From the NCBI RefSeq assembly GCF_003334765.1, contig NZ_QOWT01000092.1: 951 bases of DNA. The stretch is one strand, 5' to 3'. Position 1 is the stretch's first letter. The number at the start of each line of letters is the position of its first letter. The position numbers and the translations under genes were made by a program. Shown here piece by piece: positions 8 to 951 of the stretch. The DNA comes from Escherichia coli (GTDB taxonomy: Bacteria > Pseudomonadota > Gammaproteobacteria > Enterobacterales > Enterobacteriaceae). The notes below the pieces were generated by a model. That model did no database searches. It worked only from the letters and a program-made list of their open reading frames with translations, and was not told the DNA's origin.

Positions 8-358
8 TTACAACATTGTCAGTGAGTTAAGGCGGGATGTTTTTGGCTGACGCCAGTCCAGCTTATCGAGGAGCATTGCCAGTTGCGAGCGGGTAATGGA
101 TATCTTACCGTCACGCACCGCAGGCCAGATAAACTGACCTTCCTCAAGGCGTTTGGTGAACAGGCACAGACCATCAGCATCAGCCCACAGGATTTTAATC
201 GTGTCTCCCCGTCGGCCACGGAAGATAAACAGGTGACCGGAGAAGGGGTTATCATCCAGCACATGCTGTATCTGCTCCCCCAGACCGTTGAAGGATTTAC
301 GCATATCAGTAACGCCGGCAACGAGCCAGATACGGGTACCTGATGGGAGTGAAATCAT
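8..358 (-). CDS. tnpB: IS66-family accessory protein TnpB (IS66 Orf2-like), 116 aa
   Basis: The ORF 8..358 translates to MISLPSGTRIWLVAGVTDMRKSFNGLGEQ...GHLFIFRGRRGDTIKILWADADGLCLFTKRLEEGQFIWP, recognised from memory as the conserved IS66 Orf2-like TnpB signature. Start ATG is the complement of 356..358 and stop TAA the complement of 8..10. A strong Shine-Dalgarno GGAGG (complement of 364..368) sits 5 nt upstream of the ATG. Confidence 0.9.
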   Translation of the reverse strand: MISLPSGTRIWLVAGVTDMRKSFNGLGEQIQHVLDDNPFSGHLFIFRGRRGDTIKILWADADGLCLFTKRLEEGQFIWPAVRDGKISITRSQLAMLLDKLDWRQPKTSRLNSLTML

Positions 359-789
359 CGTCCCCTCCCGGTCAGCTCACGGATCAACACCGTGAGCAGC
401 TCTGGTGAAGGATTTTCCAGCATCATTTTACCGTAATGGAATTCCACATGGCAGGAAGCTGCACAAGCAACTGATAATGCCTCCGGAGCAGGAGCATCTG
501 TAGCACAGCGCGGGGTGTCGATAAGTTCCACTGGAACCAGAGTCGGAGAGGCCGGAAAAGATTGTGATACTGTAGGGCCTACAATAGTTGGAGGCATTCT
601 ACGAGAAATACGTCCTTCTCTTTGCCAGAGGCGTAGCCATTTAAAAATCAGGTTGTTATCAACGCCATGTTCCCGGGCCAGTTGTGCAACATTGGCATTT
701 GGTTTCGAAGCCAGTTCAACCATATGAAGTTTAAATTCATTAGAAAATATCCGGCGGGTTCCGGAGCGCCAGTCTGTAGGTTTATCCAT
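355..789 (-). CDS. tnpA: IS66-family accessory protein TnpA (orfA, predicted helix-turn-helix DNA-binding protein), about 144 aa
   Basis: The translation MDKPTDWRSGTRRIFSNEFKLHMVELASKPNANVAQLAREHGVDNNLIFKWLRLWQREG has the N-terminal HTH-like region typical of IS66 TnpA. I place the start at the ATG that is the complement of 787..789, because GGAG (complement of 798..801) lies 8 nt upstream. The ORF track begins one codon earlier at a TTG (790..792), which leaves no spacer after the SD. Stop TGA is the complement of 355..357 and overlaps the tnpB ATG. Confidence 0.85.
   Translation of the reverse strand: MDKPTDWRSGTRRIFSNEFKLHMVELASKPNANVAQLAREHGVDNNLIFKWLRLWQREGRISRRMPPTIVGPTVSQSFPASPTLVPVELIDTPRCATDAPAPEALSVACAASCHVEFHYGKMMLENPSPELLTVLIRELTGRGR
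364..368 (-). promoter_or_regulatory. Shine-Dalgarno site for tnpB, embedded in the 3' end of tnpA
   Basis: Minus-strand GGAGG followed by a 5 nt spacer and then the tnpB ATG. Together with the ATGA overlap this suggests translational coupling. Confidence 0.55.
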
Positions 790-797
790 CAATAGAA

Positions 798-801
798 CTC
801 C
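798..801 (-). promoter_or_regulatory. Shine-Dalgarno site for tnpA
   Basis: Minus-strand GGAG followed by the 8 nt spacer TTCTATTG and then the ATG at 787..789. Confidence 0.55.
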
Positions 802-802
802 G

Positions 803-840
803 TCTAATTTAGAAGGAGCTCTAATTTAGTCTGCAAGGAG
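803..840. repeat. Direct repeat pair in the tnpA leader: tctaatttag at 803..812 and 820..829, each followed by aaggag (813..818 and 835..840)
   Basis: Seen directly in the sequence: a perfect 10 bp direct repeat with a 17 bp period, lying between the putative IS end and the tnpA ribosome-binding site. Confidence 0.6.
806..836 (-). promoter_or_regulatory. Tentative sigma70-like promoter for tnpA-tnpB
   Basis: Minus-strand TTGCAG (complement of 831..836) as a -35-like hexamer, followed after 18 to 19 bp by CTAAAT or TAAATT (complement of 806..812) as a weak -10. Matches to consensus are poor, so this is only a guess at where the IS promoter lies. Confidence 0.2.
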
Positions 841-848
841 CAGGTGTT

Positions 849-874
849 ACAGACGGCATTGGCTTTACGCTTAC
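849..874 (-). repeat. Putative left terminal inverted repeat (IRL) of the IS66-family element; exact length not determinable
   Basis: The minus strand reads GTAAGCGTAAAGCCAATGCCGTCTGT from 874 downward. IS66-family termini characteristically begin with GTAA, often GTAAGCG. The inner boundary is arbitrary because the right end is not available for comparison. Confidence 0.45.
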
Positions 875-951
875 CCATAGAGGCGGATATAAGGGGAATG
901 CCGGCAGAGCAGCGGCTTGCTGAACGTCAGCGAAAAACGAAACCGCTGTTG

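Follow-up and report, generated by a model that had tools for sequence, protein, structure and literature searches.

The insertion sequences of the IS66 family have terminal inverted repeats starting with GTAAGCG and produce an 8-bp target duplication, and the roles of their TnpA and TnpB proteins in transposition are poorly understood. The tnpA-tnpB-tnpC organisation of the family (IS66, IS679, ISEc8, ISEc43) was reportedly described by Han et al. in 2001 and by Gourbeyre et al. in 2010, and the study of IS679 by Han et al. is said to be the source of the proposal that IS66 elements rely on translational coupling. Classical examples of coupling in Escherichia coli are the overlapping pairs trpE-trpD, trpB-trpA and galT-galK, which work by termination–reinitiation at AUGA or UGAUG. 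Among the gene overlaps of bacterial operons, the four-base ATGA type is the most frequent.

According to a passage in a later paper, IS66 elements use translational coupling and not frameshifting (PMC3469429, citing Han et al. 2001). A full-text literature search on IS66 combined with translational coupling or ATGA returned nothing relevant beyond one secondary citation. In IS91, the stop of the accessory gene orf121 overlaps the start of tnpA, an arrangement which is described as highly conserved in a section of a recent article (Commun Biol 2026, PMC13181058); IS91 offers a parallel only, since its proteins are unrelated and it belongs to another IS family, that of the HUH nucleases.

The window, that is, the whole stretch of 951 nt of E. 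coli DNA that was analysed, covers the junction between tnpA and tnpB in an insertion sequence of the IS66 family that resembles ISEc43, with the following features:

796..874, minus strand: left end of the element and untranslated leader to the tnpA start (direct reading; GTAAGCG from 874)
355..792, minus strand: tnpA, IS66-family accessory protein with an N-terminal helix-turn-helix (ORF list, Pfam, NCBIfam, RefSeq)
364..369, minus strand: Shine-Dalgarno-like GGGAGG within the last tnpA codons (direct reading; core GGAGG 368..364)
355..358, minus strand: ATGA start/stop overlap, in which the tnpB ATG and the tnpA TGA have TG in common (direct reading)
340..373, minus strand: candidate helix that could mask the Shine-Dalgarno site, with AUG and UGA in its loop (RNA fold, relatives' alignment)
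8..358, minus strand: tnpB, IS66-family accessory protein of 116 aa (ORF list; stop TAA 10..8)

The TnpB protein matched PF05717 (TnpB_IS66) at 3.5e-36, in an alignment spanning model positions 2-100 of 101, and scored 119 bits with NF033819, whose curated cutoff is 50. For TnpA, a match to the Pfam domain HTH_Tnp_1 was found at 2.8e-10, and its best NCBIfam matches, two models for IS66 TnpA, did not reach the curated cutoffs (68 vs 74 and 62 vs 150 bits), so that the family assignment of this protein rests on context and weak matches. The tnpA start is ambiguous, with TTG 792 directly before ATG 789 and a GGAG located 5 and 8 nt upstream, respectively; the protein has 145 aa from the TTG and 144 aa from the ATG, which is the RefSeq choice. 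The locus fits the IS66 family in its TnpB domain, helix-turn-helix TnpA and ATGA overlap, and has GTAAGCG at its putative left end. With IS66, IS679, ISEc8 and ISEc43 it shares the -1 frame of tnpB and, if tnpC is placed as in the 042 copy, the three-gene order as well. Nothing of substance differs from these elements, and the window copy is nested in a fragment of another IS66-family tnpC.

An ISEc43-like IS66 element located in the pic island of E. coli 042 and O104:H4 shares 99.9% identity with the window. With a coverage of ≥80%, this locus is present in 313 genomes of E. coli, including 042, 55989 and the O104:H4 outbreak lineage, and 339 E. coli records matched the window at ≥99% identity. 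The 042 locus adjoins the pic autotransporter gene in RefSeq, where tnpA is named 'transposase' (WP_001309734.1) and tnpB is WP_000624688.1. Base-by-base comparison with the 042 copy showed an identical junction and a sole difference at window position 25, which changes TnpB to S112A relative to WP_000624688.1, in the non-conserved tail.

The tnpC gene lies beyond the window, and the data on it were taken from E. coli 042 and related loci. In 042, the annotated 'IS66-like element ISEc43 family transposase' begins 30 nt past tnpB, a short spacer before tnpC like that of other IS66 elements, and the tnpC of the element is interrupted by ISEc45 (IS110-family); a complete tnpC, with PF13007/PF13005/PF03050/PF13817, is found in related loci. 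Since tnpC is interrupted in the closest sequenced relatives, the window copy is probably not autonomous. The preliminary description had called this part of the element intact, which holds for tnpA and tnpB, both full length against family models, but cannot be extended to the whole element, given the split tnpC of 042. Further on in 042 come a second ISEc45 and a fragment of an IS3 (L001:7400-8850 and 9770-10903), the pic-adjacent region being an IS graveyard.

The left terminal repeat, GTAAGCGTAAAGCC, begins at 874 on the minus strand, 3 nt after the disrupted flanking gene fragment, and its GTAAGCG is the usual terminal sequence of the IS66 family, as reportedly given by Han et al. in 2001. 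The element was inserted in a fragment of another IS66-family transposase gene (tnpC) at window positions 877..951 on the plus strand, reading ...IEADIRGMPAEQRLAERQRKTKPLL; RefSeq annotates this fragment in 042 as a pseudo-CDS for an incomplete IS66 family transposase that ends at window position 877. A candidate right end was located in 042 near L001:9065, with the sequence ...GACGCTTAC (reverse complement GTAAGCGTCAACGG). No direct repeat indicating a target duplication was seen at the candidate ends in 042, where the flanking 8-mers differ (CTCTATGG vs GACTATTA).

Direct reading of the minus strand at the junction gives 5'-CUGACCGGGAGGGGACGAUGAUUUCACUCCC-3', in which the tnpB start ATG occupies 358..356 and the tnpA stop TGA 357..355, tnpB being in the -1 frame relative to tnpA. 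The tnpA frame ends with ...ACC GGG AGG GGA CGA TGA, and the tnpB frame starts with ATG ATT TCA CTC CCA.... The GGAGG core is separated from the tnpB ATG by the 5-nt spacer GGACG (363..359, minus strand), and the energy of its anti-Shine-Dalgarno duplex, -10.5 kcal/mol, is among the strongest of the surveyed set. The RefSeq annotation of 042 places the end of tnpA 3 nt past the tnpB start, which is the identical 4-nt overlap. A preliminary reading of this DNA had named the two genes tnpA and tnpB and placed an ATGA at 355..358 with a GGAGG 5 nt upstream; the identities were confirmed by PF05717 and NF033819 for TnpB and by HTH_Tnp_1 for TnpA, and the coordinates, tetranucleotide and spacing proved exact against the sequence and the ORF list.

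When the whole window was searched on either strand, the pattern GGAGGNNNNNATGA had a single match, at 355..368 on the minus strand. The composite GGAGGN5ATGA was found once against 0.01 expected, and 3/200 dinucleotide-preserving shuffles contained at least one match. The GGAGG pentamer alone occurred 3 times in the window against 1.84 expected and is thus not enriched, which means that the significance of the arrangement comes from its position relative to both ORFs and from its conservation, and not from the pentamer.

Conservation was surveyed in junctions from 8 plasmid loci, 80 loci taken with one genome per species, and five metagenomic lineages. The tblastn search of plasmids with TnpB returned at least 5000 records, all of them enterobacterial and thus a narrow sample of the IS66 family, and the scan of genome contigs gave matches only at ≥62% identity; distant lineages were reached through a search of representative proteins, which gave 12,955 TnpB representatives, and through their contigs. 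Among the 79 usable genome loci, 65 had a 4-nt NTGA overlap and 6 a 1-nt overlap. Once duplicates were removed, 61 distinct junctions were left, of which 50 had the NTGA overlap, at TnpB identities of 62-97%: ATGA in 39, GTGA in 10 and TTGA in one. The rest comprised five junctions with a 1-nt overlap (TAATG or TGATG) and six decayed copies that had no usable tnpA frame. A legal start codon (ATG, GTG or TTG) was found exactly at TnpB residue 1 in 55 of the 61. The five metagenomic lineages are more distant, with a TnpB identity to the query of 51-54%, and in every one of them the junction was ATGA or GTGA, with unrelated flanking nucleotides. Throughout the 50 NTGA junctions the first base of the overlap varied among A, G and T, always giving a legal start codon, and the TGA was constant, as predicted by selection on both start and stop.

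Several variant junctions were observed in this survey. The 1-nt overlap (TGATGA or TAATGA) was seen in L005, L034, L035, L061, L065, L077 and L079, where the tnpA frame is shifted and the ATGA tetranucleotide is still there; in L065, compared with relatives that have the ATGA overlap, a single C-to-T change creates the earlier stop. A sub-clade related to ISEc8 had TTGA in L078, CTGA in L085 and TAGA in L004. The last is located on the Pantoea dispersa plasmid NZ_CP082343.1 (L004:1490-1560), which has 10 TnpB-matching places; here the tnpB start and the tnpA stop are both destroyed, TnpA extends by 51 nt, and the tnpB called by PGAP, 17 codons shorter, again overlaps the new stop by 4 nt.

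The Shine-Dalgarno site had a different distribution. GGGAG or GGAGG was present in 34 of 64 distinct junctions, all of them from the ISEc43-like clade or from part of a second one. In the ISEc8/ISSgsp1 clade only an AGGAA far upstream was found, with a duplex energy of -4.3 kcal/mol (vs -10.5 in the window), and the ATGA is still kept; L096 and L097, from distant lineages, likewise keep an NTGA overlap and have no good Shine-Dalgarno site. The retention of the overlap in such clades is expected if the overlap, and not an independent ribosome-binding site, drives tnpB initiation. The NTGA start/stop overlap is a conserved feature canonical for the IS66 family, and the Shine-Dalgarno site is not. 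The preliminary description had presented the whole arrangement as canonical for IS66, which stands for the overlap (50/61 junctions and 5/5 distant lineages) but not for the GGAGG, which is clade-specific.

From the sequence evidence, tnpB is most probably translated by termination–reinitiation coupling to tnpA, a reading to which a probability of about 0.8 was assigned. In this mechanism tnpA, tnpB and, beyond the window, tnpC would be carried on one mRNA from the left end; a ribosome on tnpA would terminate at the UGA (357..355), its footprint melting local structure, and the small subunit, held by the GGGAGG 5 nt upstream, would reinitiate at the AUG (358..356), two bases of which also belong to the stop. 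TnpB synthesis would thereby be tied to TnpA synthesis in time, place and amount. Promoter-like and terminator-like sites between the genes showed no excess, with 2 found against 1.0±0.9 expected from shuffles. A promoter-like site at 454..425 on the minus strand was considered as an internal tnpB promoter and rejected, the count being no higher than in shuffles.

As in trpE-trpD, trpB-trpA and galT-galK, stop and start share bases at this junction, the Shine-Dalgarno site lies within the final part of the upstream gene, and a co-regulated output of two proteins acting together would be expected. For the classical pairs the dependence was proven experimentally, whereas for the window pair we infer it from the anatomy of the junction, from its conservation and from one older IS679 study, in so far as that study is cited; reinitiation itself and any TnpA:TnpB ratio are likewise deduced. 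The claim in the preliminary description that the overlap implies fixed stoichiometry went too far, since coupling links the outputs and no ratio is derivable from sequence. The same description had called the arrangement not novel, rightly so, as translational coupling was already proposed for IS66 elements in 2001, according to the passage that cites that work.

The main alternative is that tnpB initiates de novo from its own strong Shine-Dalgarno site, the ATGA overlap being gene packing with no functional coupling. For E. coli, a spacer of 5 nt after GGAGG is close to the optimum, ATGA overlaps are generally known to be widespread in bacteria, and the overlap geometry varies in 5/61 junctions. 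However, an own ribosome-binding site cannot explain tnpB expression in the clades that have no such site and keep NTGA (ISEc8 type; L096, L097), the overlap persists at TnpB identities as low as 51%, where the nucleotides around it are completely different, and coupling is favoured in the literature, as far as the passage in PMC3469429 goes. As a full account of tnpB translation, independent initiation was considered unlikely. Parts of it qualify the coupling reading: with a strong and well-spaced Shine-Dalgarno site de novo initiation is possible, so that the dependence of tnpB on tnpA translation may be partial, and some de novo initiation is likely in this copy. In addition, some of the conservation could reflect compactness, because ATGA is the commonest overlap class, and the five junctions with a 1-nt overlap (TAATG/TGATG) indicate that the exact 4-nt geometry is not obligatory. 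Under termination–reinitiation coupling, the Shine-Dalgarno site of the ISEc43-like clade probably raises coupling efficiency.

A way in which coupling could be made stricter is suggested by RNA structure at the junction. In some coupled pairs, though not in all, the downstream ribosome-binding site is hidden by folding of the mRNA as long as no ribosome translates the upstream gene. The outer arm CUGAC-C-GGGAG (373..365) could pair with CUCCC-A-UCAG (349..340), and in an inner alternative GGGAGGGGA (369..361) could pair with UUUC-A-CUCCC (354..345). The inner hairpin was present in both the MFE and the centroid of a 96-nt fold (420..325, minus strand), with -8.6 kcal/mol for the hairpin alone; the 96-nt fold was no more stable than shuffles (z-score -0.97). 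In relatives, CUGAC-C-GGGAG could pair with CUCCC-G-UCAG, which corresponds to tnpB codons 4-7. A downstream CTCCC or CCTCC was found in 22 of the 34 junctions with a Shine-Dalgarno site and in 1 of the 30 that lack it, an association whose Fisher p of 1.7e-7 is untrustworthy as it stands, since by clustering the signal comes from essentially two clades and much of the apparent conservation of the helix is thus shared ancestry. The Leu-4 codon is CTC in 20/23 members of the ISEc43-like cluster and in 5/19 of the second cluster, compared with 21% of the Leu codons elsewhere in tnpB.

In a 30-sequence alignment, 87% of the cells of the outer 10-bp helix were paired; when the partners were slid, the figure was 37-55%. 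Changes on both sides were seen in only three pairs, most conspicuously CAGGGAG/CUCCCUG in the Erwinia/Pantoea clade, and this count was reached by 108/500 shuffles. RNAalifold on the 30 junctions gave no consensus structure, and no Rfam match was obtained at an E value of 1 or below. It is therefore only tentatively proposed, with the odds rather against it, that in the ISEc43-like and some related clades the tnpB Shine-Dalgarno site is locked in a helix with tnpB codons 4-7 (CUGACCGGGAG / CUCCCRUCAG; CAGGGAG / CUCCCUG in the second clade). The suggestion would be that the site may stay occluded by these codons until a ribosome arrives from tnpA.

A second structure was noted upstream, a perfect 8-bp GC-rich hairpin, GCUCACGG-N7-CCGUGAGC, at 375..397 on the minus strand (-13.5 kcal/mol), within the last 14 tnpA codons and 6 nt upstream of the Shine-Dalgarno site. 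It was rejected as a regulatory element because changes in the close relatives L002 and L008 break the pairing with no compensation, so that the hairpin seems to be a by-product of the conserved sequence that codes for LLTVLIREL.

A programmed -1 frameshift of the ribosome close to where tnpA ends, yielding a TnpA-TnpB fusion like the OrfAB of the IS3 family and leaving the ATG incidental, is a far weaker candidate. It draws on the position of tnpB in the -1 frame relative to tnpA, on the HTH_Tnp_1 domain that TnpA has in common with IS3 OrfA, on the Shine-Dalgarno-like element and hairpin close to the junction, and on the fact that 5 of the best 150 TnpB representatives are single TnpA-TnpB ORFs. 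However, the whole tnpA frame contains no X XXY YYZ slippery heptamer, homopolymer runs of ≥6 are absent from the region, and the start codon at TnpB residue 1, which a fusion would not need, is conserved in 55/61 junctions. A published statement, seen in the cited passage, also holds that IS66 elements avoid frameshifting (PMC3469429), and the fused database ORFs may stem from assembly errors or indels, or may be natural fusions of a rare kind. Frameshift fusion was rejected as very improbable, on the grounds of the missing slippery site in the tnpA frame and the conserved tnpB start codon. The resemblance to IS3-family orfA/orfB, a small upstream HTH_Tnp_1 protein followed by an ORF in the -1 frame, is one of frame arrangement only: unlike in IS3, the window has no slippery heptamer, tnpB has its own conserved start codon, and the downstream protein is a small TnpB accessory protein and not a DDE transposase.

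The five fused ORFs (P0016, P0050, P0060, P0112 and P0139) have a TnpA-like helix-turn-helix N-terminus and a full TnpB C-terminus, and still contain M-I-x-L-P internally. Either natural fusion of TnpA with TnpB or an artefact of 1-nt indels or assembly could account for them; if real, such fusions would support the idea of both proteins acting together.

That the overlap arose from a sequencing error or a frame-shifting pseudogene mutation has a negligible probability: although the element lies in a mosaic of broken ISs and tnpC is interrupted in the nearest genome, the 339 matching E. coli records and the identical 042 junction, the full length of both ORFs against family models and the recurrence of the same junction across dozens of species all stand against it.

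The tnpA–tnpB overlap is thus real, non-random, conserved and already described. What the present analysis adds is that NTGA is conserved rather than the Shine-Dalgarno site, that some lineages have a 1-nt overlap, and that the clades bearing a Shine-Dalgarno site may mask it. If this masking is true, tnpB would be translated only by ribosomes coming from tnpA, a strict coupling switch enforced by structure, and the lock would have co-evolved with the acquisition of a strong Shine-Dalgarno site, with the clades that lack the site having no need of it. For the IS66 family, the overlap is a reliable landmark for recognising tnpB and placing its start, and in the window copy it also indicates that tnpA and tnpB are not degraded. 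An obligatory co-expression of TnpA and TnpB would be consistent with the two proteins acting together.
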